From Alphaproteobacteria bacterium (GTDB lineage Bacteria; Pseudomonadota; Alphaproteobacteria; MPNO01; UBA830), in assembly GCA_964291215.2 (NCBI GenBank), contig OZ219791.1:3200001-3264000 (forward strand): DNA of 64,000 bases, read 5' to 3'. The position numbers and the translations under genes are program-made. The notes under the pieces were generated by a model. That model was not told the origin of the DNA and ran no database searches. It saw nothing but the letters and a program-made list of their open reading frames with translations. Position 1 is the first letter of the stretch; the number at the start of each line of letters is the position of its first letter. Positions 933-60,561 of the stretch are shown here, in pieces.

Positions 933-1001
933 ACCGCCCCCCAAACCGCCGGGTCGAGGAGTCGTGATACATTGGGACCCCGGGCCGTGACGGAAGGTCA
1001 G

Positions 1002-5378: not shown

Positions 5379-5393
5379 GGATACACAGGAGAT

Positions 5394-7496: not shown

Positions 7497-7501
7497 CGAC
7501 C

Positions 7502-8602
7502 ATGGCTCCGACGGCGATCGATGTCTTTGCGGGCGCTGGGGGCCTGACGGTCGGCCTCAAACGCGCAGGGTTTCGCGTCGCCGCCGCCGTGGAGATCGAG
7601 CCCCATTCGTTCGCTACCTACAAAGCGAACCATCCCGAAGTGCGGTGCCTGAAGGAGGATATTGCGACCATTTCAGGTACCGCTTTATTGGAACTCGCGG
7701 GAACAGACCGGATCGATCTACTGGCCGGTTGTCCACCGTGCCAAGGCTTCACCAGCCTGACGGCAAAATACAGGGATAGGGAAGATCCTCGTAACGCACT
7801 CGTTCTGGAGATGACCCGCCTAGCCGAGGAAATTCGACCGCGGGCGATCATGATGGAGAATGTTCCCGGCTTGGCGCGTAAGGGGAGATCGCTGTACGGC
7901 CAAATGCAAGCGCGGCTCCAAGCGCTCGACTACCGACTGACGGAAGGGGTTCTGCAGGTTGCCGATTACGGTGTGCCACAGTTTCGGCGACGTTTCGTTT
8001 TGCTCGGCGGCCAAGGCTTCGAGATTGCCCTCCCCGATGCGACTCATTCCGGTGTGCCGACTAGCGACCTTGCGCCGTGGCGCACGGTACGTGACGCGAT
8101 CAAGAACATGCCAGCCCCCCTCACCTTGGCAGAGGCCAAGGCAATGGGACAGGTCGAGCGGTCCGATTGGCACATCGTTCGGAAGCTGTCACGCGAGAAT
8201 GTCGAGCGCATCAAAGTGGCGAAGGCAGGCGAGACATGGACGCACATTCCCGAGCATCTCCGGCCGGCCTGCCACCGCGGTGGCTATGTCGGGTTCACCA
8301 ATGTGTACGGGAGGATGGTTTGGGACCGTCCGTCGCCTACGATCACCGGCGGCTGCACCACTCTAAGCAAGGGCCGCTTCGGTCACCCAAATGCCGATCG
8401 GACGATCTCCGTACGGGAGGCCGCGCTTCTCCAGACCTTTCCTCGAGATTACCGCCTTGACACGCCCTTCATGGATCGTGTTTGCAACATGATAGGCAAC
8501 GCATTGCCATGCGACTTCGCGGAATCTCTTTCGCGACAATGTTTTGAGGAGCTTGACAGGCAGGCGACAAACATGTCTTCAGTTTTCGACTACGCAACCT
8601 GA
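7502..8602 (+). CDS. DNA cytosine-5 methyltransferase
   Basis: ATG at 7502; DVFAGAGG (motif I), GCPPCQGF (IV), ENV (VI), YGVPQFRRR (VIII), RTISVREAALLQTFP and IGNA (IX-X). The last codons lie inside the IS256 end. Confidence 0.93.
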   Translation: MAPTAIDVFAGAGGLTVGLKRAGFRVAAAVEIEPHSFATYKANHPEVRCLKEDIATISGTALLELAGTDRIDLLAGCPPCQGFTSLTAKYRDREDPRNALVLEMTRLAEEIRPRAIMMENVPGLARKGRSLYGQMQARLQALDYRLTEGVLQVADYGVPQFRRRFVLLGGQGFEIALPDATHSGVPTSDLAPWRTVRDAIKNMPAPLTLAEAKAMGQVERSDWHIVRKLSRENVERIKVAKAGETWTHIPEHLRPACHRGGYVGFTNVYGRMVWDRPSPTITGGCTTLSKGRFGHPNADRTISVREAALLQTFPRDYRLDTPFMDRVCNMIGNALPCDFAESLSRQCFEELDRQATNMSSVFDYAT

Positions 8603-9807
8603 TGTCTGGAAATTGTCGTGAAGCTCTCAGTCATCGAGCTGTTCCCATTTGATCTTGGTTTCGGTTTCCCATTTTTCGTCGATGAGGACCGCGGTTGAGA
8701 GGCGCTCCAACGAGGCGAGGTTCGGAAAGCCCCTGACTTTGGAGGTGCGCCGCTTGAGCTCTTGCTGGATCGGCCGCTCGATACCGTTCGAGGTTCGCAT
8801 GCGCTTGCGGTGAGCATCGGGCAAGGTGAAGACAGCGAGCCCCGCATTCTTTTCCAGCCAGGAAGCCTGGATGCTTGTCGTTGGCCACGAGGGCGCCCAG
8901 TTCAGCCTCGGCGGTTTGGAGTGAGGACGCATGGCTCCGAGCTGTTTTCCAATACGTTTCCTGATGTCATTGTTCGGTGCACGGCGTTTTGCGCAGGTGG
9001 AACTGGCAGCGCTGCCACATCGCCGCGCCCAGCACCGCGCGTCGTGCCGCTTTCAGCCCAGCATCCGAGACGATGAAGGTCGTACCATGCAGGGCTAGCA
9101 AGCTTTCCGGGAAGGCTCTCCAATGGACCTCGGCCTCGGAGAGCGCCACAGAGAGCCCCAGAACGTGCCTGCAGCCCCTATTCCGATGGCCGAGAGCACT
9201 GCAACATCGCGCACAACGCCGTCATGGCGGGCTTTTTCGTAGCGCGCATCCAGGTATTTCATCAGGGGCCGGTTGCGCGGCGAGTTCTTCATCGAGCAAC
9301 CTGGTGGCCCCCTGAGAAGAGGACAGGCTCCCGAACTCGCGCATTACATCTTGCCGCGTGGGAACACCCTTGATGTACATCTCGGCTACGGCGCGAGAAG
9401 ATCGCTGGCCGCGTTCAAGCGACTGGGGACGGATCGTCCCCGTGAGCGTTTGGCACCTGAACGGTAACAGTGGGGGTGTCGATCCGCTTGTAGCCGTTGG
9501 CATAGCCCTGTCGCTCCGGTGTCCGGTGGCCCGCTTTCAAGTACTGCTCGCGCTCGATTTGCATCGCAAGCTCGAAGAGCTGGCCAAAGACCCGCCCCAG
9601 ATCCGTTGCTCCGTTTGCGATCAGATGTTCCAAAACAGTCCCGATCGTCGTAGTGTGTCGCAGGTCCATTCGCTTCCTCCATGAATGTTTACAGCTCCAT
9701 GGGATAGTACGATGGCGCCGCGTTTCACTGGGGGGCTAGCCCCCCCCCAGTGAAACGCCTCAAAGCGCAAACCTCAGACAAATTTCCAGACATCAAGTTA
9801 CAGTACC
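8588..9807 (-). mobile_element. IS256-family element, copy 1 (transposase pseudogene)
   Basis: Imperfect 26-bp inverted ends (GGTACTGTAACTTGATGTCTGGAAAT / GACTACGCAACCTGATGTCTGGAAAT); fragments LDARYEK, ALSEAEVHWRAF, WQRCQFH, RTSNGIER in several frames; near-identical to 33713-36970. Confidence 0.88.
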
Positions 9808-9829
9808 CGGGGGACCCGGGGGGGGGGGG

Positions 9830-29651: not shown

Positions 29652-32495
29652 ATGACGCCGGACGCGTTCATCGCCAAGTGGCGGGCGTCGGAATTGAAGG
29701 AACGCTCGGCGTCGCAGGAGCATTTCATCGACCTGTGCCGCCTGCTGGGTGAGCCGACGCCGGCGGAAGCCGACCCGGTGGGCGAACAGTACTGCTTCGA
29801 GCGCGGGGCGCGGAAGGACAGCGGCGGCGACGGCTGGGCCGATGTGTGGAAGCGCGGCTGCTTCGCCTGGGAGTACAAGGGCAAGCACGCCGACCTCGAC
29901 GCGGCGTTCAACCAGCTTCGCCAGTACGCGCTTGCGCTGGATAACCCGCCGCTGCTGATCGTCTCGGACATGGCGCGGTTCCGCATCCGCACCAACTGGA
30001 CCAACAGCGTGAGCGAGACGCACGAGTTCACGCTCGACGATCTGGCCGACGGCGCGACCCGCGACAAGCTCAAATGGGCGATGTCGGACCCGGAGCGGCT
30101 GCGGCCGGGTGAGACGCGACAGGCGGTGACGGAACGCGCGGCGGCGACCTTCGCGGCGCTTGCGCAGGGCTTGCGCGAGCGGGGCCACGTTCCGCAGGCG
30201 GTGGCGCATTTCGTGAACCGGCTCGTGTTCTGCATGTTCGCGGAGGATGTGGACCTGCTGCCGGGCAGCATGTTCACCCGGATGCTGGAACAGGCGCGGA
30301 GGCAGCCCGACGAATTCGCCGAACTGGCGGGCGATCTGTTCAGCGCAATGTCCACAGGTGGCCGGATCGGCTTTGAATCGGTGGCCTGGTTCAACGGCGG
30401 TTTGTTCGACGACGACGCGGCGTTGCCCCTCGACCGCGCGGGGATCGAGACGGCGCTCAAGGCCGCGGCGCTCGACTGGTCGGAGATCGACCCGTCGATT
30501 CTCGGCACGTTGTTCGAACGCGGCCTCGATCCGGACAAGCGCTCACAACTCGGGGCGCACTACACCGACCGCGACAAGATCATGGATATCGTCAAGCCGG
30601 TGATCGTCCGTCCGCTGCTCGCGGAATGGAAGACGGCGAAAGCCGAAATCACGGCCTTGGTCGAGCGCGCCGATGCGACCGGTTCGCCAGCAACCCGGAC
30701 ACGGCTGCAGCGCCGGGCGAACGAGGCGTTGCGCGTCTTCCTCGAACGGCTGCGGCAGTTCACTGTGCTCGATCCGGCCTGCGGGTCGGGCAACTTCCTC
30801 TATCTCGCGCTGCACGCGCTCAAAGACATTGAGCATCAGGTCCAGCTCGAAGCGGAGGTCCTCGGCCTTCCGCTCGGGTTCCCGGCAGTGGGCCCGCCGA
30901 ATGTGAAAGGCATTGAGATCAACCCCTATGCGGCGGAGCTTGCCCGCGTGTCGGTGTGGATCGGAGAAATCCAGTGGATGCGGCGTAACGGCTTCGGCGC
31001 CTCGACCGATCCGGTTCTCAAGCCGCTCGACACCATCGAATGCCGCGACGCGATCCTCGCGCCGGACGAGAGCGAGCCCGAGTGGCCGAGGGCCGATGTC
31101 GTGATCGGCAATCCGCCGTTTCTTGGGGACCGGATGATGCGAGGCGGTTTGGGCCACGAATACACCGAGCGTTTGCGCCAAGCCTATCGGGGTTCGGTGC
31201 CAGCCTCCGCCGATCTGGTCTGCTACTGGTTCGCCAAGGCTGGCGCGCTGGTGGGCCGAGGCGAGATCGCCCGTGCCGGCTTGGTCGCGACGAACTCGAT
31301 CCGGGGCGGCAACAACCGTCCCATCCTCGATCGGATCGTCGCCGACAGCGCCATATTCGACGCTTGGTCGGACGAACCCTGGGTGGTCGACGGCGCGGCG
31401 GTGCGGGTGTCGCTAGTGTGTTTCGGCCCGCGCGACGCCGACCTTCCCATCTCGCTGAACGGACAGCCAGCACCCCTGATCCGCGCTGACCTGACCGAAG
31501 ATGGAATCGACTTGACCGCGGTCGCGCGGCTGGATTGCAACAGGGTCGTTGCATTCTTGGGCGTCTACAAGAACGGCCCGTTCGACATTCCGGGTGATCG
31601 GGCGTGGGAGTGGCTCTCCCTGCCGGCCAACCCGAACGGCCGTCCGAACGCCGATGTCCTCAAGCCGAGGGTCAACGGCATGGATTTGACCCGGCGTTCC
31701 GCGGGCAACTGGATCGTCGATTTCGGCGAGGATATGAGCGAAGCCGAGGCCGCGCTTTACGAAGCGCCGTTTGCGCACATACTCAAGCATGTGAAGCCGG
31801 TGCGCCTCGGCAGGCGGCGGGAGAGACATCGAAGATACTGGTGGCGGCATGGAGAAACCCGTCCGGGCATGTGGCGGGCGCTCGACGGACTGTCCCGCTT
31901 TATTGCGACGCCGACCGTTTCCAAGCATCGGCTGTTCGTCTGGCTTGAGGCAGGCGTCTGTCCCGACCACCAGCTTATCGCCATCGCCCGCGACGACGAT
32001 GTTACCTTCGGCATCCTGCACAGCCGGTTTCACGAGGCTTGGTCCTTGCGGCTGGGGACGTGGCTCGGCAAGGGCAACGATCCGCGCTACACGCCGACCA
32101 CCACCTTCGAGACCTTCCCCTTCCCGGGGGGCCTCTCGCCGGATATTCCCGCCGCCGACTACGCTGCCGACCCGCGCGCCGTCGCCATCGCCGAGGCCGC
32201 GCGGCGACTGGTGGAGTTGCGCGACCGCTGGCTCAACCCGCCGGAATGGGTGACGTGGGTGGACGAGCCGGCGCGGGGCTATCCGAAGCGCCCGGTTGCT
32301 CGCGACGAAGTGGCGGCAAAGCACCTCAAGACCCGCACGCTGACCAACCTCTACAACGCCCGCCCCCAATGGCTCGCCGACGCCCACGCCGAGCTCGACG
32401 CCGCCGTCGCGGAAGCGTATGGCTGGGATACGGATCTGAGTGAGGAGGAGGCGCTTGGAAAGTTGCTGGCGTTGAACTTGGCAGCCGAAGACTGA
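29652..32495 (+). CDS. MmeI-like (Type IIL/IIG) restriction-methylase
   Basis: ATG 29652; WADVWKRGCFAWEYKG nuclease motif, WFNGGLF, GAHYT, LDPACGSGNFL, IGNPPFLG, RYTPTTTFETFPFP, LDAAVAEAYGW. Confidence 0.9.
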   Translation: MTPDAFIAKWRASELKERSASQEHFIDLCRLLGEPTPAEADPVGEQYCFERGARKDSGGDGWADVWKRGCFAWEYKGKHADLDAAFNQLRQYALALDNPPLLIVSDMARFRIRTNWTNSVSETHEFTLDDLADGATRDKLKWAMSDPERLRPGETRQAVTERAAATFAALAQGLRERGHVPQAVAHFVNRLVFCMFAEDVDLLPGSMFTRMLEQARRQPDEFAELAGDLFSAMSTGGRIGFESVAWFNGGLFDDDAALPLDRAGIETALKAAALDWSEIDPSILGTLFERGLDPDKRSQLGAHYTDRDKIMDIVKPVIVRPLLAEWKTAKAEITALVERADATGSPATRTRLQRRANEALRVFLERLRQFTVLDPACGSGNFLYLALHALKDIEHQVQLEAEVLGLPLGFPAVGPPNVKGIEINPYAAELARVSVWIGEIQWMRRNGFGASTDPVLKPLDTIECRDAILAPDESEPEWPRADVVIGNPPFLGDRMMRGGLGHEYTERLRQAYRGSVPASADLVCYWFAKAGALVGRGEIARAGLVATNSIRGGNNRPILDRIVADSAIFDAWSDEPWVVDGAAVRVSLVCFGPRDADLPISLNGQPAPLIRADLTEDGIDLTAVARLDCNRVVAFLGVYKNGPFDIPGDRAWEWLSLPANPNGRPNADVLKPRVNGMDLTRRSAGNWIVDFGEDMSEAEAALYEAPFAHILKHVKPVRLGRRRERHRRYWWRHGETRPGMWRALDGLSRFIATPTVSKHRLFVWLEAGVCPDHQLIAIARDDDVTFGILHSRFHEAWSLRLGTWLGKGNDPRYTPTTTFETFPFPGGLSPDIPAADYAADPRAVAIAEAARRLVELRDRWLNPPEWVTWVDEPARGYPKRPVARDEVAAKHLKTRTLTNLYNARPQWLADAHAELDAAVAEAYGWDTDLSEEEALGKLLALNLAAED

Positions 32496-32517
32496 TCCAA
32501 AGAAAGCGTAGCAGGCT

Positions 32518-32925
32518 ATGAAACGACATTGTTGCCGAAATTGCCACTTCCTTGCTAAGGAACATGCGGATCGTACGGGAGCAAGACTTTCCTTTTCTTG
32601 GAATGACGAAGAAAGGGGAAATATGGAAGTGAAGGACGACTATGCGGCGAAATGTGCTGAAGGCGTCTGGGATACAGGGATCAATCAAAATTTAAATGCA
32701 TGTTTGCGCGAGATATTGATGAAAAACAGGAAAAATGCTTGCTTCTTTATAGAGGTGCAGCAGGGAATGTCATTCGATGCTGCTCGAAAGATTCATCGTA
32801 TCAAAAGCGAAAATAGAAATTTGAAAAGAAGCTATCGTTATACCCAAATAGGTTTATGGATCGCTGCGTGCAGCCTTCTGGCAAATTCAATTTACTTGAT
32901 TCTAAGAGATTCCCCCGTTCCATAG
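32518..32925 (+). CDS. Hypothetical Cys-rich protein with a C-terminal transmembrane helix
   Basis: 135 aa, visibly AT-rich versus its flanks; CCRNCHFL, further Cys residues, hydrophobic IGLWIAACSLLANSIYLIL; 22 bp downstream of the MmeI-like gene. Confidence 0.65.
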   Translation: MKRHCCRNCHFLAKEHADRTGARLSFSWNDEERGNMEVKDDYAAKCAEGVWDTGINQNLNACLREILMKNRKNACFFIEVQQGMSFDAARKIHRIKSENRNLKRSYRYTQIGLWIAACSLLANSIYLILRDSPVP

Positions 32926-33712
32926 TGAAGTGCAACACATGATGGGCTGTGGTCATGTGTTTTTAGACGCATGATGTTGCGGAGCGGTAGCGGCGAGAGT
33001 TCCTGTACAAGATGAAGGGAGCTTGTTCATGTCCAAAGGCTACCGTCACCTACGAAGAGCGATGCCAGATTGAGGCAGAAAAGCGGTCTTTCACAAGGTG
33101 CGATTGCTCGGCAGCTGGGCCGATCAACAATTTTCCGGGAGATCAAGCGCAACACCGGGGGACGGGGTTACCGTCACAAGCAGGCGCAAAGGATGGCAGA
33201 AACGCGCCGCAGGGCCGCCTCGTCTGTTTCTTGGCGGTTGACGCCTCGGGTTGAGGCTCAGAAAAAGCTGCGGGAGGGCCCCGAGCAGCGGCCGTTTTCG
33301 ACTGGAGGGCCGTGGGTCGGCAACGGATCCATGATCGCCGAAGATCGGAGAGCCGGGGGCGTCTTGTGGAAGAAGCTTCGGCGGCGCGGCAAGAAGCCGA
33401 ACTGGAAGGGTGGATGCCATTCCGGCCGGGTGGACATTTCCGAGCGCCCTGCGGAGGCAAAGGAACGGGTTGGCGACCGGGAGCCATCATCGGCAAAGCT
33501 CACAGTGGAGCTGTCGTGTCGATCGTGCCACGAAATACGCCTTGCTGGGTGGACAGAAAGACACGGTTGGTTCGGTCATGATCCGCCTGCTCGGCTCTGG
33601 TGCGCTATTGGTCCACACAATCACGTCAGACAACGGAGTTCGCAGACCACAGGCGTGTCGCACTTGACGCAGATTTCTTCTTCGCCTTTCCATTCCTGGG
33701 AGCGCGGCGGCT

Positions 33713-36700
33713 GGTACTGTAACTTGATGTCTGGAAATTTGTCTGAGGTTTGCGCTTTGAGGCGTTTCACTGGGGGGCTAGCCCTGCCGTGTCATGACAA
33801 ATCTGGTTGACAATGGTTTACGTGTTCACGCGTGTCTTTGTCTATCCCGGAACCCGATTTCCCGGCCGATTTGGTGACCCAGTGCGACGCTGGTGTGTCT
33901 GGCCACATGATCTGGTGACCCGGGCGTGCTGCGGTAGCCGCCGAGATGGGCGACCAGGTGCACCGCATCGGCGAGACGCTCCGGTTCCTTCAGGGCGTAC
34001 TTGTGTGCGTAGTCGCGCGAGTTCGCTGTCGGTGAACATCAGCTGCGGCTCGCACCTGGCGGCCGAGCAGGGTCATGACCATGATGCGCCATGCGATGAC
34101 GGCGTTGATCGCCCGCTGCAGGCGGTGCGGAACAGCAGGTGTTCCACCCTGCATCCGGATTTGAGCACGTAATCCTCGATTCGCCAGCGCTGAAGGTAGA
34201 AGCCGACGATGTCGGCCGCCTCCTTCGCAGTGCCAACCCGCACGGTGGTCAGCAGGCACCACGGGATCCTCACCCTCGGGCGGTCCCTGACCCCGTGCAG
34301 GGACACCGGCTTCGCGCTGGGGGCGGTGCCCGTCACGGGTGACGGACCGTAACTCGCCAGGCGCTTCTGTCGCGCGGGCCTTCTTCCGGCTGGCTTGCTC
34401 CGTCAGTCCCTCGATCTCAATCAGGCCTGCACCGCCGGCCATGACGGCGAACAGCCTTCCCTCCTTCAGCACCCTGTCATGCTTGGCGCGCAGATCGACG
34501 CGGGGCAAGCGCGTGTCGAACAGCTCGAAGATGTCGGCTTCCCGACGGAGATGACGCGCGTCTTGCCGCCGGGGTGGCAGCGCCTTGAACCCCTCGAGCC
34601 AGCGCTGCGGCGTGTCTCCTTCTCCTGCGACCGGGGCTTCACCGGACCCAGCACCCCGAGTGGCAGGTCAGTCACCGCCAGGGTCGCGTGCAGGTGCAGG
34701 CTTGAGGCCCCGGTCTGGTTCTCACCTGCAGGCCGTCGCAGCCGGGAGAAGTTCAGGTCCGTGCCGCAAGAACCGTCTTCTGGCCACGGATGCGCCGGAT
34801 GCTGCGCTCACGGTGCGGCGCAAGAATGTTCGCCGGCGTGATCTCCGAGGGCGACCATCCGGTAAAACGCATTGATCGCGGTGTTGTCGGCGCTGGGAGA
34901 CGCATTGATCTTCTGACCGGCCGCCAGAAGGCCGGCGCTCCAGGCGCGCAGAAAGTCGCTTGTCACCCCCCTCCAAACTCGTTCTGCGCCCAGTCGTTCA
35001 GACCTTCGCCCGGCGAGGGCGCATGATCGACCTCCCCAGCTTCCTGCGCCACGAGCGCTCCAGTTCGGCCACGAAGACCGTCTTCACCGTCTCCCAGTGC
35101 TCCCGGTCCTGCCGGCCTTCGGTCCTGCACAGGAAGTTGGCCGCGCGCAGGCAGGGTAACCTTCATCGGCAAAACTGAGCCATGGTCGAAACGGTCCTCG
35201 AAGTCACGCGGCGCAGGATGCGCACATGGCTGGGCGGGCAGAGCACCTGATCAAGAAACGGCTCAGACAGACGATCCGCTGCAGGTGGTTCCGGCGCTGC
35301 CCGTCGTTCCATCCAGCGGTCCCGCGCCGCGCGGCGGCGGCAAACCCCGCCACCCGTGCGCCGAGCCCACGAGATATTGGCAGCCGGCGAAGGTCGTCGC
35401 GGGTGTTCACGCGCAATCAGCGTGACCGCCCGGTCAATACGATCCCCGACCACGATGATCCCGAATGCGCGCGCCGGAACCTCTGCAGCGATATCATCCA
35501 CCAACAGGCGAGGCCGGCGGTCGATTGTCGGTGACTTCGGCGCCGGCAGGACGATCTCCGGGCGCCCAGCGCCCTCAGGCAGCCGGCAAGCTGCAGACGG
35601 CCGCGCGCGTCGACAAAGGCAAACTCCTCGCAGACGACCCAGAGCCGACCGGCTGTCGAACTGCTCACAGGACAGCAGCGACGCGATCCGCGCAACTGCT
35701 GCCTCGTCCCGCAATGTGCGGCTGATCTGAGACTGTGACATGGGACACTTATGCCACGCCGAAACACCGTTGTCCAGCTAAAATTTCCGTGACATGCGAG
35801 GGCTAGCCCCCCAGTGAAATGCGGCGCCATCGTGCTATCCCATGGAGTTGAAAAACATTCATGGAGGAAGCGAATGGAGCTGCGACACACTACGACGATT
35901 GAGGCCGTTTTGGAACATCTGATCGCAAACGGAGCAACGGATCTGGGGCGGGTCTTTGGTCAGCTCTTCGAGCTTGCGATGCAAATCGAGCGCGAGCAGC
36001 ACTTGAAAGCGGGCCGCTACGAACGGACACCGGAACGACAGGGCTATGCCAACGGCTACAAGCGGATCGACACCCCCACTGTTACCGTTCAGGTACCAAA
36101 CGGTCACGGGGACGACCCCCCAGTCGCTTGAACGCGGCCAGCGATCTTCTCGCGCCGTAGCCGAGATGTACATCAAGGGTGTTTCCACACGGCAGGATGT
36201 AATGCGCGAGTTCGGGAGCCTGTCCTCTTCTCAGGTCAGCCGGGCCACCAAGTTGCTCGATGAAGAACTCGCCGCGCAACCGGCCCCTGATGAAATACCT
36301 GATCCTGGATGCGCGCTACGAAAAAGCCCGCCATGACGGCGTTGTGCGCGATGTTGCAGTGCTCTCGGCCATCGGAATAGGGGCTGCAGGCACGTTCTGG
36401 GGCTCTCTGTGGCGCTCTCCGAGGCCGAGGTCCATTGGAGAGCCTTCCTGGAAAGCTTGCTAGCCCTGCATGGTACGACCTTCATCGTCTCGGATGCCGG
36501 GCTGAAAGCGGCACGGTGCTGGGCGCGGCGACGTGGCAGCGCTGCCAGTTCCACCTGGCGCAAAACGCCGTGCACCGAACAACGACATCAGGAAACGTAT
36601 TGGACAACAGCTCGGAGCCATGCGTCCTCACTCCAAACCGCCGAGGCTGAACTGGGCGCCCTCGTGGCCAGCTATCGCGACAAGCATCCAGGCTTCCTGG

Positions 36701-36970
36701 CTGGAAAAGAATGCGGGGCTCGCTGTCTTCACCTTGCCCGATGCTCACCGCAAACGTATGCGAACCTCGAACGGCATCGAGCGACCGATCCAGCAAGAGC
36801 TCAAGCGGCGCACCTCCAAAGTCAGGGTCTTTCCGAACCTCGCCTCGTTGGAGCGCCTCTCAACCGCGGTCCTCATCGACGAAAAATGGGAAACCGAAAC
36901 CAAGATCAAATGGGAACAGCTCGATGACTGAGAGCTTCACGACAATTTCCAGACATCAGGTTGCGTAATC
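33713..36970 (+). mobile_element. IS256-family element, copy 2 (transposase pseudogene ~35874-36931), interrupted by IS4
   Basis: Same ends as 8588-9807; 33713-33783 and 35801-36970 join into a full copy; approximate target duplication GCGCGGCT. Confidence 0.88.
33784..35800 (-). mobile_element. IS4-family (Tn5/IS50-like) element with N-terminal DUF4338/DruA-like region, degenerate
   Basis: Imperfect inverted ends, GGCTAGCC duplicated on both sides; fragments FVDARGRLQLAGC, LIAREHP, IVCLSRFLIR, then WAQNEFGG, GDKRLSARL, WCLLTT, YLQRWRIEDY, LKSGCRVE, AVIAWRIM. Confidence 0.78.
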
Positions 36971-37589
36971 GCGCGGCTTGAATGAGCACACCAACGGCCT
37001 GGTGCGGGAGTACTTCCCGAAGGGCACGGACTTTCGCGCGACATGCAACGAAGATGTTCAGAAGGTACAGGATCGGCTCAACACTCGGAAAGTCCTGGGA
37101 TCGCCGACGGAGGTAATCTTGAAGTGAAACCGCCCTGACCATCTGCGTTCCGCAGCCGCAACGTGCAGCAGGGTCCATGCTGCGCGACGGCGAAATAGTG
37201 GCTTGAAGCCGACAAAGGCGTTGCATAAGCTCGATGTTGAAGGAACTGAAGCTGTTCCCAGGCGGAATCGAGAGGGGCAGAGGGGGAAAATTTGTGCAGC
37301 ATCCGGCCCTCATCTCCGTTCGGACTACGCCCTCACTGCGATGAGGGCCGGATGTTGCACTTCAGACTGGAAGTGGGGTCGTTGAACTTCCTGTAACACT
37401 TCTGCCCGGTTCATTGCGCTTCCTTTCGGGGGCGCGAAGATACCGGACAGATCGCATGTTAGCGACAGATTCCGATTTGAACATTGCCTGTACCTGTCTT
37501 CGAGAGTAGGGTCTAATTGTAAAAGTTGAGCGCCGATTTGGTCGCAAATGCGATCAAAGGCTGCTGCGACCGGAGGGAAAGGAAACGGA

Positions 37590-53454: not shown

Positions 53455-53770
53455 GCGCCGGGGCCGCCGGTTCGCGTCGCCCGTCCGCGGGGCCTGCCGG
53501 CAACCCGGCGGCGGTGGGGAGCCGCTGCGAAAGACCGTTTCTCGCACCGCTGTGCGACATGGGTACCGGAAATCACCATGACAAATCATGAAGATGGCAC
53601 TTGACGGCGGCTTCGGGGTGGCGGCAGGTCCGGCGAAACCGGCTGCGGCCGGCGTACCGGGCGGCGCCGGCTGTCTCCGGCGGGCGGTGTTGTGCACCGT
53701 ATCGACCGGACCAGCGCGGCGCCGGATGGCCCGGACAGCGGCGCGGTGCGGCTGGCGGAGGGGTTGAGAC

Positions 53771-54508
53771 GTGGCGGTGCTAGCTCAAGCCGACGGCGGT
53801 GCGCCGTATTTTCCGGAACATGTGGCCATTATCATGGACGGAAACGGCCGCTGGGCGCTGTCGCAGGGCTTGCCGCGGGCATCCGGGCACCCGGAAGGTG
53901 CCGAGGCGGTCCGGCGCATCATAGCGGCGTCGCTCGAATTCGGAATCCGCCATCTGACCCTCTACGGGTTCTCGATGGAGAACTGGAACCGCCCCCCGGC
54001 CGAAGTGCAGGCGCTGATGACGTTCCTGCGGACAAACCTTGCCGAGGAATCCGCCAAGCTCGATGCTCATGGCGTCCGCCTCGTGTTCATCGGCGACCGC
54101 AGCCGGCTCGGCCATGACATTGCGTTGTGTCTCGACGACGCCGAACGCCGTACAAGGAACAACACGAGACTCGATGTCATCGTCGCGCTCAGCTACGGCG
54201 GTCGGCAGGAAATCACGTCGGCCGTGAGGCGGCTCGCTGGCAAGGTGGCCTGCGGACAGATCGAGGCTGCGGAGATCGACGAGCGGATGGTCAGCGAGCA
54301 CCTGTTCACTTCGGACGTGCCGGATCCCGATCTTGTCATCCGCACCGGCGGAGAGCGGCGCATCAGCAATTTCCTGCTGTGGCAGGTCGCCTATTCGGAG
54401 TTCATCTTCACCGATGTCCTGTGGCCGGATTTCTCGCGCGAGCATCTCGCGGAATGCCTTGACGAGTTCGGGCGCAGAAACAGGCGCTATGGCGCACTCT
54501 CGGCCTGA
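53771..54508 (+). CDS. uppS: Undecaprenyl diphosphate synthase
   Basis: HVAIIMDGNGRWA, FSMENWNRP, SYGGRQEI, IRTGGERRISNFLLWQ. Confidence 0.97.
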   Translation: MAVLAQADGGAPYFPEHVAIIMDGNGRWALSQGLPRASGHPEGAEAVRRIIAASLEFGIRHLTLYGFSMENWNRPPAEVQALMTFLRTNLAEESAKLDAHGVRLVFIGDRSRLGHDIALCLDDAERRTRNNTRLDVIVALSYGGRQEITSAVRRLAGKVACGQIEAAEIDERMVSEHLFTSDVPDPDLVIRTGGERRISNFLLWQVAYSEFIFTDVLWPDFSREHLAECLDEFGRRNRRYGALSA

Positions 54509-55304
54509 AGGGGGGCGCGACAATCTCGCACTGCGCCTGGGTTCCGCCTGCGTGCTGGTGCCGCCGGTCGTTTTCGCGGTCCATGCCGGTTTTCCGTGGT
54601 ACGAGGGGGGCGTCGCCGTCGTCGTGACGTTGATGATCTGGGAATGGACGCGGGTCTGCGGCGCGCGCGCGGCGGCGGCGTCCGGACTGGTCCTCGCTGC
54701 CGCCGTCCTCGGGAGCTGTCTGGCGATTTCCGCGGCTACGCCGCAGGTTGCGGCCGCGACGGCCGCTGCGGCCGCCGTGATTCTCGCCGGTGTCCAGCTC
54801 CGCCGCGGCGTCAGCGAGGCCCTCATCTTCAGCTGTGGTGGATTGACAATCATTTCCTGCGCTGCCGCCCTCCTGTGGCTGCGGATCGGGGCCGAAGCCG
54901 GCCGCGAGCTTGTTTTCGGTCTCCTCTGCGCTGTATGGTGCACCGACACCGGTGCCTATTTCGTCGGCAGAGCGGTGGGCGGCCCCCGCCTTGCCCCCCG
55001 GATCAGCCCCGCAAAGACATGGGCAGGCCTTTGCGGGGGTATCGTCGGCGCGGCGGCATGCGGCTGGATCTGGGCGCGCCTCGCCGGTTTCGGCAGTCAC
55101 GGCTGGGCGATGGCATGCGGCGCGATGATCGCGTTGCTCGCGCAGGCCGGGGACCTGGCGATGTCCGCGGTCAAGCGGCGGTACGGGGTAAAGGATTCGA
55201 GCGGTCTCATCCCGGGGCATGGAGGCGTGCTCGATCGCGTTGACGGAATGCTCCTGACCGCGCCGGCGGTGGTCCTGGCGGTGGTGATCCTGGACGGAGC
55301 GTGA
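54489..55304 (+). CDS. cdsA: Phosphatidate cytidylyltransferase
   Basis: DTGAYFVGR, SPAKTWAG, KRRYGVKDSSGLIPGHGGVLDRVD. Confidence 0.97.
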   Translation: MAHSRPEGGRDNLALRLGSACVLVPPVVFAVHAGFPWYEGGVAVVVTLMIWEWTRVCGARAAAASGLVLAAAVLGSCLAISAATPQVAAATAAAAAVILAGVQLRRGVSEALIFSCGGLTIISCAAALLWLRIGAEAGRELVFGLLCAVWCTDTGAYFVGRAVGGPRLAPRISPAKTWAGLCGGIVGAAACGWIWARLAGFGSHGWAMACGAMIALLAQAGDLAMSAVKRRYGVKDSSGLIPGHGGVLDRVDGMLLTAPAVVLAVVILDGA

Positions 55305-55307
55305 CGG

Positions 55308-56504
55308 ATGGGGACAGCGGACGCGACGCAGGGCAGGCGCAAGACGATCTCGATCCTGGGATCGACCGGGTCGGTGGGTTGCAGCACGATCGATCTGGTA
55401 CGGCGCGATCCCGGATCCTATCGGGTCGAGGCGCTCACAGCGCACCGCAATGTCGCTCTGCTGGCCGAACAGGCGCGGTCCCTCGATGCCGCCTGCGCGG
55501 TGATCGCCGATGGTCGGCTGTATGGCGATCTGCAGCGCGCGCTCGCGGGAACGGACACCGAGGTTGGCGGCGGGCCCGAGGCTGTCGCAGAAGCAGCGTC
55601 GCGGCCGGCCGACTGGATCATGGCGGCGATTGTCGGCGCCGCGGGCCTCGTGCCGACCCTTGAGGGGATTCGCCGGGGCGCGACGGTCGCGCTTGCCAAC
55701 AAGGAAAGCCTGGTCTGTGCAGGAGAGGTCGTGCTCGCCGAGGTCGCCGAGAGCGGCGCCGTGCTGCTGCCGGTCGATTCCGAGCACAATGCGATATTTC
55801 AGGTCTTCGATTCCGAATACCGGCCGGGAATCGAGAAGATAACGCTGACCGCTTCGGGCGGGCCCTTCCTGGACATGTCTGCCGAGGAGATGAGGGACGT
55901 CACGCCGGCGGCGGCTGTCGCTCATCCGAACTGGGACATGGGGGCCAAGATCTCGGCCGATTCCGCGACCATGATGAACAAGGGGCTGGAACTCATCGAG
56001 GCGCACTATCTGTTCGCGATGCCGGAGGACAGGATCGACATCCTGGTGCATCCCCAGTCGATCATCCACAGCATGGTGTCCTATATCGACGGGTCGGTCC
56101 TGGCGCAGCTGGGGACGCCCGACATGCGTACGCCGATCGCCCATGCGCTTGGCTGGCCGGAGCGGATCCCTGCGCCGAGCGGGCGGCTGAAACTGGGCGA
56201 GATAGCGACGCTCACCTTCCAGGCCCCCGACCCGGTGCGGTTTCCGGCGCTTCGGCTGGCGCGTGAGGCGCTGACAGTCGGCCAGTCCTGTCCGACCGTC
56301 CTCAATGCTGCGAATGAAACGGCCGTAGAGGGCTTTTTGGCGGGCCGGCTCGGGTTTCTGGATATCGCCAGGATCGTCGAGGAGACGCTGTCGGGAATCC
56401 CGCGGTCGCCGATTCGGTCGATCGACGACGTCATGGCGGTCGATTCGGAGGCGCGCGCATACGCCGGCGGGGTCGTGTCGGCCCCCCTGGTCACGTACGG
56501 CTAG
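55308..56504 (+). CDS. dxr: 1-deoxy-D-xylulose 5-phosphate reductoisomerase
   Basis: LGSTGSVG, LANKESLV, PVDSEH, HPNWDMGAKIS, MNKGLE. Confidence 0.99.
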   Translation: MGTADATQGRRKTISILGSTGSVGCSTIDLVRRDPGSYRVEALTAHRNVALLAEQARSLDAACAVIADGRLYGDLQRALAGTDTEVGGGPEAVAEAASRPADWIMAAIVGAAGLVPTLEGIRRGATVALANKESLVCAGEVVLAEVAESGAVLLPVDSEHNAIFQVFDSEYRPGIEKITLTASGGPFLDMSAEEMRDVTPAAAVAHPNWDMGAKISADSATMMNKGLELIEAHYLFAMPEDRIDILVHPQSIIHSMVSYIDGSVLAQLGTPDMRTPIAHALGWPERIPAPSGRLKLGEIATLTFQAPDPVRFPALRLAREALTVGQSCPTVLNAANETAVEGFLAGRLGFLDIARIVEETLSGIPRSPIRSIDDVMAVDSEARAYAGGVVSAPLVTYG

Positions 56505-56525
56505 CGGCGGAAAGGAAAGCGTGCG

Positions 56526-57665
56526 ATGGAGGTACTTGCCGCCGTCTGGAACTATCTGATTCCCTTTCTCGTGATCTTCACCGTGGTCGTGTTCGTGCAT
56601 GAGATGGGCCACTACCTGATCGCGCGGCGCTGCGGCGTGCGCGTCGAGATCTTCTCGATCGGGATCGGCACCGAAATATTCGCCCGCACCGACCGTCACG
56701 GCACCCGCTGGAGAATCGGCGCGGTGCCCGTGGGCGGTTATGTCAAGATGCGTGGCGAGATGCAGCCGCTGCCCGGTCCGGTGCAACAGGCAATCGCCGG
56801 CACGGAGGGGAAGGACGACGATTCGTTCGAGACCAAGACGGTGATGCAGCGCGCCCTCATCGTCGCCGGCGGGCCCCTGGCGAATTTCGTGCTGGCCATC
56901 GTTCTGCTGGCGGGCATGTTCGCCACCCTCGGGCAGCCATACACGCCGGCGGATGTCGGGAAGGTGCTGCCGGGCAGCGCCGCCGAAAGGGCGGGCTTCC
57001 AGCCCGGAGACCTGATCACAGGGATCGACGGAACCCGCATCGAGCGCTTCGAGGAGGTGGTGCAGGTCGTTCAGCTCCATCCTGCGACGGCGCTGGAATT
57101 CCGGTTGATCCGCGACGGCCGGCAGATAACGCTGACAGCGGTCCCCGACACCGTCGATCTCCAGGATCGTTTCGGGAACCCGATGAGGATAGGCAGGCTT
57201 GGCATCTCGCGCGGTGCGGGCGACACCAAGCTGGTCCGTCACGATCCGTTTACCGCGGTATGGCGCGCGACCGGCCATACATTTTCCCTCGTCGGCGATA
57301 TTTTCTCCAGTATCGGCCAGATCATCGACGGTCGGCGAACGACGGAGGAACTCGGCGGCCCGATCCGCATTGCCAAGATATCCGGCGATGTATGGCAGAC
57401 CGGTTTTCTCGGCGTGTTGACGTTTGTTGTCCTGCTGTCTATCAATCTCGGGCTGGTGAACCTGTTGCCGATTCCGATGCTTGATGGAGGGCATCTTGTG
57501 TTCTATGCGGTCGAAGCCCTGCGCGGCAGGCCTCTTGGCGCCAGGGCACAGGAATTGGGGCTCCGGGTGGGGCTGGGCATGGTCCTCGCGCTGATGGTCT
57601 TTGCAACCTGGAACGATCTTGTCCAGCTGAGAGTTATCGATTTCCTTGTTGGTCTCGCTACATGA
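56526..57665 (+). CDS. rseP: RIP metalloprotease RseP
   Basis: HEMGH, PDZ domain, NLLPIPMLDGGH. Confidence 0.97.
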   Translation: MEVLAAVWNYLIPFLVIFTVVVFVHEMGHYLIARRCGVRVEIFSIGIGTEIFARTDRHGTRWRIGAVPVGGYVKMRGEMQPLPGPVQQAIAGTEGKDDDSFETKTVMQRALIVAGGPLANFVLAIVLLAGMFATLGQPYTPADVGKVLPGSAAERAGFQPGDLITGIDGTRIERFEEVVQVVQLHPATALEFRLIRDGRQITLTAVPDTVDLQDRFGNPMRIGRLGISRGAGDTKLVRHDPFTAVWRATGHTFSLVGDIFSSIGQIIDGRRTTEELGGPIRIAKISGDVWQTGFLGVLTFVVLLSINLGLVNLLPIPMLDGGHLVFYAVEALRGRPLGARAQELGLRVGLGMVLALMVFATWNDLVQLRVIDFLVGLAT

Positions 57666-59965
57666 CAATCATCTCTTGGCTTGCGAATACGGGTTTGCAC
57701 CTTCGACAACAGGGAGCCGCGGCGCGATTGTTCGCGCTTGCAACCGCGCTACTGCTGGCCGCGGCGAGCCAGGCGGGCGCCAGCCAGATCCGCATCGAGG
57801 GCAACCAGCGCATCGAGGCTGAGACGGTGCGCCAGTACATGAGGTTGAAGCCCGATCGTGAAGCGACGGACGAGGAGCTCGACAGGGCGCTCAAGGCGCT
57901 TTTTGACAGCGGGCTGTTTGCCGATGTCGAGGTGCGGCGCGATGGCCCGGATGTTGTCGTCCGGGTGGTCGAAAATCCGATAATCAACCGCATAGCCTTC
58001 GAGGGAAACAAGCGGATTTCCGACGAGGATCTGCGCGCCGAGATCGAGTTGCGTCCCCGTATCGTGTTTACACGCCCCCGCGTCCAGCGCGATGTTCAGC
58101 GCATCGTTGACATCTATCGGCGAAGCGGCCGTTACACGACGTCGGTGGAGCCAAAGGTCGTCCAGCTGCCGCAAAACCGTCTCGATCTCATCTTCGAGAT
58201 CGCTGAAGGAAGCCTCACGGAGATTCGCAGCATCACGTTCACGGGCAACCGTGCATTCGACGATGGAGATCTTCGCGAAGTCGTTCAGACCAAGGAAAGC
58301 GCGTGGTACCGCATCTTCAGTTCGGGGGACACATATGACCCCGACCGCCTGGCCTTTGACCGCGAACTCCTGCGTCGTCACTACCTGTCGGAGGGCTACG
58401 CCGACTTTCGCGTGATTACTGCCGCAGGCGAACTCACGCCCGAGAAGGACGCCTTCTTCATAACGTTTTCGGTCAGCGAGGGAAGCCGCTACAAGTTCGG
58501 CAAGATCGATATCGAATCGGCTCTCAAGGAAATCGACATCGAGGCACTCCGGGCTGAGCTGACGGTCGCATCGGGTGACTGGTACGATGCCGAAGAGGTC
58601 GAGAACAGCATTGGCAAGCTTACCGACGCGCTCGGCAATCGGGGCTATGCGCTCGCCGAGGTTCAGCCGCAGATAGCGCGCGATCGCGACAACCTCGCTG
58701 TAGATGTCAGGTTTGTCATAAGCGAAAGTGAGCGAGTGGTTGTCGAGCGGATCGAAATTTCCGGAAACATACGGACCGAGGACAGCGTCATCAGGCGCGA
58801 GATGCTGCTTGTCGAGGGAGACATATTCAATACCTACAGGCTCCGCCGCAGCCGTCAGAGAATCACCAATCTCGGCTTCTTCGACAAGATCGATGTCACC
58901 CGGGAACCCGGCAGCGCCGATGACCGCACGATCATCAAGATCGCGGTCCGCGAAAAAGCCACCGGCGAGCTCTCGGTCGGCGTTGGCTACTCCACGGACG
59001 GCGGTGCGCTGACCGATCTCAATATTCGCGAAAGAAATCTCCTTGGCCGGGGACAGGACCTGCAGCTCAACCTTAAGCTGGGTGTGCAACAGACCGAGAT
59101 CGTCCTTGGCTTCACCGAGCCGTATTTCCTCGAGAAGGAACTCTCGGCCGGGTTTGACATCTTTCGCACCACCGACGACCTCCAGGACCTGAGTTCTTAT
59201 GACAGCGAGAGGATCGGGTTCGGATTGCGCGCGGGTTACAGAATTACCGAACCGCTGTCGCAAAGATGGACATATACCCTTGAGCAGACGGAGATTCAAA
59301 ATGTCCCCGCGAATGCGTCGAGGGCGGTCAGGGAAGAGCAGGGAAAAACGCTAACATCATCGATCGGGCAGACGCTGCTTTATGATACGCGCGACAACCG
59401 TTTTGACCCGAACGAGGGGTATTCCGTGCAGTTGCGCAATGTCTTTGCCGGTCTCGGCGGCGACCGTACCAACCTGCGCAGCGAAGTGGAAGGAGACTAC
59501 TTCCGCCCACTGACGGACGATCTGACCCTGATCGCCTTGGTCGGTGTCGGATATATTCTCGATTTTGGTGAGCCGACGCGCCTGTCGGAACGCTATTTTC
59601 TCGGCGGATCGAATCTGCGCGGTTTCCGGTCGCGCGGCACCGGGCCGCGCGACCGGGCAAGCACCGACGCCTTGGGAGGCAACTGGTTCTACCGCGCTTC
59701 GCTCCGCCTGAGCTTCCCGCTTGGCCTGCCCGATGAGCTGGGACTCAAGGGCAGCGTGTTTACCGATGCAGGGACGCTCAGCGGGATAGACTTGGCTTCT
59801 GCCACACCGATCTGGGACGAGAGTTCGCTGCGGGCCGCGATCGGGGCCGGCCTGTCCTGGGTCTCGCCCGTGGGCCCGATGACATTCAGTTGGGCGTGGC
59901 CGATAGCCAAGGAGAACTTTGACAAGACCGAACTGTTTCGCCTCGGCATAGGCACCAGGTTCTGA
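57662..59965 (+). CDS. bamA: Outer membrane protein assembly factor
   Basis: POTRA repeats (IEGNQRI, FEGNKRI), LRGF motif, C-terminal GTRF. Confidence 0.98.
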   Translation: MTIISWLANTGLHLRQQGAAARLFALATALLLAAASQAGASQIRIEGNQRIEAETVRQYMRLKPDREATDEELDRALKALFDSGLFADVEVRRDGPDVVVRVVENPIINRIAFEGNKRISDEDLRAEIELRPRIVFTRPRVQRDVQRIVDIYRRSGRYTTSVEPKVVQLPQNRLDLIFEIAEGSLTEIRSITFTGNRAFDDGDLREVVQTKESAWYRIFSSGDTYDPDRLAFDRELLRRHYLSEGYADFRVITAAGELTPEKDAFFITFSVSEGSRYKFGKIDIESALKEIDIEALRAELTVASGDWYDAEEVENSIGKLTDALGNRGYALAEVQPQIARDRDNLAVDVRFVISESERVVVERIEISGNIRTEDSVIRREMLLVEGDIFNTYRLRRSRQRITNLGFFDKIDVTREPGSADDRTIIKIAVREKATGELSVGVGYSTDGGALTDLNIRERNLLGRGQDLQLNLKLGVQQTEIVLGFTEPYFLEKELSAGFDIFRTTDDLQDLSSYDSERIGFGLRAGYRITEPLSQRWTYTLEQTEIQNVPANASRAVREEQGKTLTSSIGQTLLYDTRDNRFDPNEGYSVQLRNVFAGLGGDRTNLRSEVEGDYFRPLTDDLTLIALVGVGYILDFGEPTRLSERYFLGGSNLRGFRSRGTGPRDRASTDALGGNWFYRASLRLSFPLGLPDELGLKGSVFTDAGTLSGIDLASATPIWDESSLRAAIGAGLSWVSPVGPMTFSWAWPIAKENFDKTELFRLGIGTRF

Positions 59966-60561
59966 TGTTGACGGAACGCCTTCGCCGTCTCGGAATCCTG
60001 GCCATCGTCACCTTGGCGGCGGCGCCCGCAGTCTGGTCGGCACCCCGCGCCCAGACCGCGGACGGTGTCCGTATCGGGATAATCGATGTCCAGCGGGTCT
60101 TCACCGATGCCAAGGCCGCGAAGAGCGTTCGCGGGGAAATGGATAATATTCGCAGGCAATTCCAGGAAGATGTTCGCGCGCAGGAGCGAAAACTGCGCGA
60201 GTCGGCGCGCCAGCTCATGGAGCAAAAGGTGCTCCTCTCCGAGCAGGAATTCTCGAGGCGGCGGCGGGCGCTCGAAGATGAGGGGAGAAGGGCGCAGGAG
60301 GCGGTTCGCGAGCGCAAGCAGAAACTCGACCGGGCTTTCAGCAGGACCAGGAACGTCATCATGAAGGATCTGGTTGCGGTTACCAGAGACCTCCGGAAGT
60401 CACGCGACATAGACATAGTCTTGGAAAAGCGTGACGTGTTCTTGGCCGTGTCGGCCCTCGACCTGACACCGGAAATCATCAAGCGCCTCGACAAGAGACT
60501 GCCCAAGGTCGCGCTGCAGCTGGATGATTCCGGAAGCGACAAGGGCAAGGGAAAGCAGTAA
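59965..60561 (+). CDS. skp: OmpH/Skp periplasmic chaperone
   Basis: Signal peptide, IGIIDVQRV, coiled coil, DLTPEIIKRLD; syntenic position. Confidence 0.9.
   Translation: MLTERLRRLGILAIVTLAAAPAVWSAPRAQTADGVRIGIIDVQRVFTDAKAAKSVRGEMDNIRRQFQEDVRAQERKLRESARQLMEQKVLLSEQEFSRRRRALEDEGRRAQEAVRERKQKLDRAFSRTRNVIMKDLVAVTRDLRKSRDIDIVLEKRDVFLAVSALDLTPEIIKRLDKRLPKVALQLDDSGSDKGKGKQ

Follow-up and report, generated by a model that had tools for sequence, protein, structure and literature searches.

Systems that inactivate repeated DNA

In fungi, repeat-induced point mutation (RIP) inactivates repeats by C-to-T changes that arise anew in each copy, and single-copy genes are spared. The present analysis concerns a genome (G000; 6.15 Mb in two contigs, 64% G+C, about one-third repeated DNA) that EF-Ts matches of 48-63% identity place in the alphaproteobacteria, and in particular a stretch of 64,000 nucleotides on its contig 2 (the window), in which the section under study is a defence island with nested insertion sequence (IS) elements that carry many deletions of 5 to 7 nucleotides. 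The outcome resembles that of RIP, in that inactivating changes accumulate in repeats, single-copy genes mostly escape and transposon families die. The lesions, however, are 5- to 7-nucleotide deletions rather than C-to-T changes, in a bacterial host; the alleles are common to copies (160 of 655 are private) rather than new in each; and a low background in single-copy DNA (66 gaps versus 2 in the closest relative) means that the process is not confined to repeats.

Gene conversion among bacterial IS copies was reportedly described by Cordaux in 2009, non-functional copies being said to exchange sequence and become mosaics. The copies studied here are likewise mosaics in a genome that has RecA, but flanking markers are mostly not co-converted (four haplotypes at 39 of 55 pairs, with a linked minority), and the exchange appears both directional (38% of deletions versus 4% of insertions exceed a frequency of 0.5, subject to how polarity was assigned) and nearly limited to gaps of at least 5 nucleotides. 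Mismatch repair handles loops efficiently only up to about 4 nucleotides, and large loop repair is a MutS-independent processing of loops above about 4 nucleotides that includes loop-directed removal (PMC2504288). Deletions of at least 5 nucleotides spread in G000 and deletions of 1 to 2 nucleotides do not, as large loop repair might lead one to expect (the 3- to 4-nucleotide class in the frequency test holds only 18 alleles), but loop repair as described there is a repair activity and not a genome-scale ratchet, and it does not explain the origin of the 5- to 7-nucleotide peak. Deletion sizes in symbiont pseudogenes follow a power law with an excess of multiples of three, according to a study of deletion bias and alternative end joining (PMC6054270). 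The likeness to the system described there lies in small deletions that wear away neutral DNA where the genome has neither Ku nor LigD; the difference is that here 5 and 7 nucleotides flank a 6-nucleotide mode and 3, 4 and 9 nucleotides are rare. Chromosomal curing by asymmetric transformation, in which recombination favours the shorter allele and acts against mobile elements, is, as described, a removal of whole elements that requires DNA uptake (PMC4774983), whereas none of the five genomes of the genus analysed here (G000 to G004) has a ComEC match, a result by which natural transformation was set aside.

No description of the pattern was found in the literature searched, in which subscription journals were largely outside coverage. 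The pattern is probably undescribed: its outcome is RIP-like and its logic is that of biased conversion, and by the differences above it belongs to neither. Each deletion is likely copied between repeats, and such copying would be a hitherto undescribed means by which bacteria disable mobile elements.

Size, ends and density of deletions in repeats

An earlier note, made from the letters of the window, had claimed that mobile elements carry dense microdeletions of about 6 nucleotides that single-copy genes lack, and had offered as explanations a process directed at repeats or mobile DNA, a deletion bias spread by gene conversion, or a consensus artefact. Repeat pairs were found throughout G000 by k-mer pairing, and 6,149 of 7,922 tile pairs were kept, the others having fewer than 200 aligned bases or more than 10% substitutions. 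Among 1,729 distinct gap sites of 3 to 14 nucleotides, 1,301 are of 5, 6 or 7 nucleotides (287:659:355), beside only 28 of 4 and 99 of 8 nucleotides; sizes of 3, 4 and 9 nucleotides are rare. The ratio matches a deletion of 5 nucleotides with two independent one-base extensions (calculated 292:649:360). Deletions found in a single copy peak alike, with 40, 73 and 45 at 5, 6 and 7 nucleotides versus 10 at 4 and 20 at 8 nucleotides. The density of 5- to 7-nucleotide gaps per kb increases with copy number, from 0.68 (2 copies) through 1.25 (3 to 4), 3.03 (5 to 9), 3.88 (10 to 19) and 8.04 (20 to 49) to 8.51 (50 or more), and this trend persists inside divergence classes. The unions of copies of six families other than IS256 yield open frames of 387 to 678 codons. 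A 65-copy repeat near a reverse transcriptase match peaks likewise, and was not used as evidence as it may include another IS.

The ends of the deletions are only weakly specified. Microhomology is modestly enriched and mostly 0 to 2 nucleotides long. At 99 sites the motif of the left end, read on the coding strand, is the same as that of the right end read on the template strand, each strand preferring roughly C or G, not C, pyrimidine, C; because this weak preference is symmetric, a double-strand cutter is suggested by the sequence of the ends. Codon phase is absent (16, 25 and 24 of the 6-nucleotide sites in the three phases), by which coupling to codon boundaries or translation was ruled out as the source, and phased spacing was ruled out by the lack of periodicity among deletion sites. 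No flanking motif was found out to 45 nucleotides from the sites, and in a test for loss of restriction sites the three best motifs accounted for just 11% of 1,066 sites, with no defined central site. In most elements the first 200 to 300 and last 100 to 200 nucleotides are lightly loaded. This would follow if flanking homology is required for pairing, but selection acting on the ends or the limits of transcription could also account for it.

Behaviour of deletions among IS copies

The IS256 family has 77 near-full copies in G000, which carry on average 15.9 deletions (range 4 to 24; about 12/kb) and 17.4 substitutions each. The gaps are losses, because no copy that spans the open reading frame is full length (these 69 of the 77 measure 991 to 1149 nucleotides rather than the 1,182 expected from intact relatives elsewhere, which mostly have 393 amino acids) and because the union of the copies matches one intact relative (90% and 78% identical over two halves). 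A family consensus had led to the claim that both IS256 copies of the window share gaps beyond those in which they differ, and these lengths bear it out.

Across 16 families, 24% of 655 deletion alleles (160) are private to one copy versus 61% of 4,214 single-nucleotide polymorphism (SNP) alleles (2,571), and the copies are unique mosaics of deletions. At 88% of 367 sites, one breakpoint is found in at least 90% of the deleted copies; uniformity within a site, while lengths vary across sites, favours single origins that spread. A frequency of 0.5 is exceeded by 38% of 517 deletions of 5 to 7 nucleotides and 18% of 71 deletions of 8 to 10 nucleotides, but by 2% of 66 deletions of 1 to 2 nucleotides and 4% of 26 insertions of 5 to 7 nucleotides. 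Deletions are nearly unlinked to substitutions 3 to 15 nucleotides away: of the pairs 3 to 10 nucleotides apart, 39 of 55 between a deletion and a SNP show all four haplotypes, versus 42 of 96 between two SNPs, and one deletion with a SNP 6 nucleotides off gives haplotype counts of 15/41/3/10. IS4 copies that are 1 SNP apart over 2 kb differ at 5 to 11 deletions, and in the two largest families SNP distance and deletion distance are uncorrelated (r = 0.03 and -0.06).

Three samples from one study (X1 to X3) were compared with the window by means of k-mer contigs. Both alleles are present at several deletion sites, in samples that differ from the window at as many as 191 of 1,724 letters in single-copy flanks. 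For X2 and X3, IS4 assembles into single contigs some 1.3 kb long, at about ten times the single-copy depth, which differ from the window copy by 38 and 83 gap letters, respectively, and by just 4 and 2 substitutions.

In a family-by-family gap survey of the first 61 of 65 families, the multicopy host genes (RTX, hsdM, Rpn and MmeI-type) have few 5- to 7-nucleotide gaps. An IS66 family of 10 members with frames of about 460 amino acids (G000:C2:1611440-1614232) has 3.2 substitutions/kb and zero 5- to 7-nucleotide gaps; it is young and likely a current invader.

Single-copy DNA and related genomes

The closest relative, G001, has core genes 92% identical to those of G000, and 492 of 776 single-copy tiles (457 kb) were compared. 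Gaps of 5, 6 and 7 nucleotides number 8, 46 and 12 missing in G000 versus 0, 2 and 0 missing in G001. Intergenic DNA (24 kb) has 28 versus 2 gaps of 5 to 7 nucleotides, and in-frame genes (299 kb) have 13 versus 0 six-nucleotide gaps. The resulting densities are 1.2/kb in intergenic DNA and 0.04/kb in in-frame genes, or 10- to 300-fold lower than the approximately 12/kb of IS256. On the motif derived from repeats, the 66 single-copy sites score -0.01 +/- 0.15 versus a local background of -0.39, and so the weak motif of single-copy DNA is probably the same. Beside five clean IS insertions, 6.7 kb of single-copy flank contain 2 such gaps, and 15 frameshifted single-copy genes show mostly 1-nucleotide losses.

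From the single-copy size peak and the 66:2 asymmetry it follows that the deletion source is general as well as lineage-specific; the load of repeats is far higher, and part of the contrast is selection. The claim that single-copy genes lack such deletions is therefore contradicted, not least by four 6-nucleotide gaps in the block of core genes of the window itself (53640..60560, + strand; direction taken from the 66:2 asymmetry rather than an outgroup), which lie at approximately 53647 between the RRF and prenyltransferase genes, 56484 at the end of the DXP reductoisomerase gene, 57729 at the start of the Omp85 gene and 60547 at the end of the OmpH gene. Comparison of the size spectra of multicopy and single-copy DNA, as the earlier note advised, did give a sharp 6-nucleotide peak, but one not restricted to repeats. 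Of a process directed at mobile DNA, the strong loading of repeats is real; its confinement to mobile DNA is not supported, as the same peak and probably the same motif occur in single-copy DNA.

In a distant congener, G002 (core DNA about 70% identical to that of G000; 400 kb scored), repeats have 163, 178 and 31 distinct gaps at 5, 6 and 7 nucleotides versus 8 at 4 nucleotides. The mode is thus shifted to 5 to 6 nucleotides (the fit of the 5-nucleotide core model is 171:163:39), and the end motif is related, symmetric and more A/T-rich. The copies of one five-copy family carry 0, 9, 24, 25 and 26 deletions; an IS66 with eight copies is intact, and six of these match the first exactly. G004 has no 5- to 7-nucleotide peak (4, 6 and 9 gaps in 39 kb of pairs). 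The repeats of G003 (5 pairs, 3 kb) and G001 (1 pair) were too few to score, and the portions compared amount to approximately 16% of G001, 7% of G002 and 5% of G004. The trait is therefore patchy, being present in G000 and G002, absent from the closest relative and without a peak in G004.

Proposed mechanism and alternatives

The account judged on balance probable is that a rare source of 5- to 7-nucleotide deletions acts genome-wide and that deletions, and only deletions, are copied between repeats, loading old IS families to about 12 deletions/kb. The source is likely a two-fold symmetric staggered cut, the overhangs of which are lost before rejoining; it might be a dimeric nuclease or an abortive cut of transposase type, with a core of 5 nucleotides and each end varying by one base. 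The size peak, the lineage specificity, the weak symmetric motif and the absence of codon phase speak for such a source. To spread, a deleted copy, as DNA or possibly RNA, would pair briefly with an intact copy, the extra bases (at least 5) of which would loop out, too large for efficient repair by MutS and MutL; the loop would be cut out and the strand sealed, transferring the deletion without neighbouring substitutions. Spread is indicated by the single breakpoint per site, the high frequency of derived alleles, the unique mosaics and the slight linkage to nearby SNPs. Purifying selection would keep useful genes, whether single-copy or multicopy, almost clean. Of the explanations offered earlier, a deletion bias spread by gene conversion is the nearest. 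Conversion of the ordinary kind does not fit, however, since most substitutions a few bases off do not travel with the deletion.

Several observations weigh against this account. At about 0.35 nats per site the motif is weak, and it is matched about equally well by three cut geometries; no candidate gene tracks the signature across genomes, and no enzyme was found. In the references, extra bases that are rare and not in tandem count as ancestral; this inflates the high-frequency class and was checked against intact outside proteins for IS256 only. Inheritance contributes: in smaller families SNP and deletion distances correlate (r = 0.84, 0.60 and 0.50), and the five G002 copies mentioned above show nested deletion patterns. 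For certain deletions, linkage to a SNP 3 to 4 nucleotides off is tight, and diversity at 4 to 10 nucleotides is lower beside deleted alleles (0.029 versus 0.053). No clean duplicate of one insertion was found among the copies; copying in place is inferred. The copy-number trend is confounded with selection, since most clean multicopy families are host genes. An IS66-like family of 15 (G000:C2:2779500-2781300) is nearly clean pairwise, with 1.0 gap/kb at 43 substitutions/kb; either its deletions are already fixed or the family escapes.

A bolder proposal is that a patchy system, possibly encoded by a single locus, both makes the 5- to 7-nucleotide deletions and edits them into sister copies by means of deleted copies (DNA or transcripts), as a self-propagating deletion drive and counterpart of RIP with its memory in dead elements; this is possible, though doubtful as it stands.

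Recurrent targeted deletion, in which pairing or a guide would identify repeats and every copy would be cut on its own, in the manner of RIP, at hot spots set by sequence and with constant breakpoints, is unlikely. It would explain, without a transfer step, the independence of deletions from nearby SNPs, the spread of IS256 loads from 4 to 24 and the copy-number trend. Against it, deletion ends vary approximately 1:2:1 across sites but not within a site, the motif is too weak to fix the ends, and the same size peak occurs in single-copy DNA; nor was a guide source found among spacers, Piwi, prokaryotic Argonaute (pAgo), an array of IS pieces or a flanking motif within 45 nucleotides.

A general mutation bias alone, with selection cleaning useful DNA and dead IS lineages inheriting deletions through trans-mobilisation and unbiased recombination, is also unlikely. 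The peak in single-copy DNA, private deletions at about 6% of private SNPs (160 versus 2,571) and the correlated distances in small families all agree with it, and the uniform IS4 copies of X2 and X3 could be clonal bursts. What it leaves unexplained is why deletions of at least 5 nucleotides, and not deletions of 1 to 2 nucleotides or insertions, become frequent, and why linkage to adjacent SNPs is weaker for deletions than for other SNPs; in addition, the hsdS pseudogene of the window has three lesions and zero such gaps in approximately 1.6 kb.

Double cutting centred on mismatches, by an EndoMS/NucS-like enzyme acting in heteroduplexes of diverged copies, is very unlikely. The 5-nucleotide minimum and the symmetry resemble the 5-nucleotide overhang of EndoMS, and dependence on copy number is predicted, but no NucS match was found in G000 and polymorphism is not in excess at deletion centres (10 of 96 versus about 16% elsewhere; 196 sites), which largely refutes such cutting at mismatches between copies. 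A consensus or assembly artefact at multicopy repeats, which the earlier note had raised and for which it counts that the runs are of one study with a library type not on record, is practically discounted by the presence of both alleles in k-mer contigs of three runs with diverged single-copy flanks, by the 66:2 asymmetry in single-copy DNA, by the young 10-member IS66 family without such gaps, and by the distinct size mode and motif of G002 and the lack of a peak in G004.

Candidate genes and guides

The mutS, mutL and recA genes are intact in G000, and in tests with 29 E. coli genes none of the core repair genes appears broken. SbcD, family-1 Ung, RdgC and RAYT have no match in G000, and SbcC has a weak match only. 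End joining by Ku and LigD was excluded, as neither Ku nor an ATP-dependent ligase was found in G000, and endonuclease VII, VRR-NUC and topoisomerase IB were rejected as the deletion source after a gene search. RecA, ExoVII, Rpn/YhgA, reverse transcriptases and Cas1 do not separate genomes with the signature from those without it: Rpn/YhgA matches number 12 in G000, 16 in G002 and 2 to 5 in the other genomes of the five, and a type II-like Cas1, though shared by G000 and G002, is found in G004 too. Sixteen G002 proteins similar to G000 proteins include no candidate nuclease, being mostly metabolic, with one helicase-PLD protein and three without a family. One weak, sub-threshold match to T7 endonuclease I, in a 999-amino-acid open frame (G000:C2:2011019-2011189), occurs only in G000.

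The CRISPR loci of G000 comprise a type I-G system with 96 spacers (G000:C1:574173-581216) and a Cas9 system with 16 (G000:C2:2068487-2069571), the regular spacer lengths of which indicate approximately 8 kb of array without 5- to 7-nucleotide loss. Self-targeting by CRISPR or TnpB was rejected because the 96 and 16 spacers have no full-length genomic match and no protospacer- or transposon-adjacent motif lies at a fixed distance, although spacers could have been lost earlier. Argonaute was rejected likewise: a PIWI-domain gene was found in 0 of 41 genomes, the pAgo model matched only a SIR2 domain, and the pPIWI-RE search had no positive control. As no guide array of short IS pieces was found in G000, a sister copy, or RNA from it, is likely to serve as template. 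With regard to abortive target cutting by a DDE transposase, target duplications, resolved for few IS families, are of 8 bp (62 of 84 copies of one family) and of AT-rich 6 bp (2 of 9), and none of those resolved fits the deletion motif.

Mobile elements and controls of the window

IS256 copy 1 (8588..9807, - strand) has approximately 21 gaps of 5 to 12 nucleotides and 23 substitutions versus the family reference. IS256 copy 2 lies on the + strand as a left end (33713..33777) and a body (35800..36970; approximately 18 gaps of 5 to 12 nucleotides, 16 substitutions), interrupted by one of 14 copies of an IS4-family element (33778..35799, - strand) with 12 gaps of 5 to 8 nucleotides and only 9 substitutions. 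Four 6-nucleotide pieces of copy 2 (36018-36023, 36236-36241, 36302-36307 and 36672-36677) are missing from copy 1, and 7 nucleotides (9036-9042) are missing from copy 2, exactly as first read; the alignment of the two adds one 3-nucleotide and two 1-nucleotide gaps. The left end of the family (9733-9750 and 33770-35810) has a short palindromic core flanked by G and C runs of variable length, which is an insertion hot spot for other elements, among them IS4 in the window and a 1,253-nucleotide element elsewhere.

An IS1634-family element on the + strand (left part 9809..10241, with 5 gaps of 5 to 7 nucleotides; right part 11362..11929, with gaps that include 6, 13, 6, 9 and 6 nucleotides) is split by an IS630-family element (10236..11363, + strand; empty-site joint 10238-11362) with 10 gaps of 5 to 7 nucleotides and 17 substitutions. 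The gaps suspected in IS630, IS4 and IS1634 were thus recovered against family references, and those suspected in IS30 and the integrases against other copies in the genome: the left part of an IS30-family element (32915..33701, + strand; it resumes after 36970) has gaps of 5 to 7 nucleotides, and a five-copy tyrosine-integrase segment (26350..29000, - strand) has such gaps at low density in both directions. A fragment of a repeat family of 22 members (15941..16134, - strand) has 4 gaps of 5 to 7 nucleotides in approximately 200 nucleotides. Only 540 bp of the IS5 piece were compared, with no gaps.

The hsdS pseudogene (16542..18151, - strand), the single-copy control of the earlier note, decayed as described there, with 2 stops, 1 frameshift and no two-residue gap in comparison with P0092; from its sequence it appears to be a disrupted nucleotidyltransferase-HsdS fusion, of a kind (about 540 amino acids) that is common among homologues. 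The two-copy IS256 (20137..21339, - strand), intact and put forward as a second control, indeed has approximately 40 substitutions and zero gaps versus its sole twin, but is not a neutral control because its excess of synonymous codon changes (21 versus 12 non-synonymous) suggests selection. The window also contains defence genes (972-8602, 22210-25878 and 29499-32495) for a type IIG-like restriction-methylase, a HATPase with the only C5 methylase match of the genome, a full-length Dsr2 and an MmeI-type enzyme, and an identical pair of 36-nucleotide repeats (12692-12727 and 12758-12793) spaced by 66 nucleotides, with the 36+30 geometry of the type II array of the genome and a different sequence.

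Implications

A sharp class of 5- to 7-nucleotide deletions in two genomes of a genus, and not seen in two others, points to a nuclease or repair route that could be found by comparative genomics. Deletion-only transfer, if true, would be a new form of biased conversion that disarms IS families without recognising them individually, and it could help to explain the viability of a genome with repeats as a third of its DNA. Scoring the signature takes little effort for any complete genome, and so inactivation of IS bursts in bacteria is directly testable.

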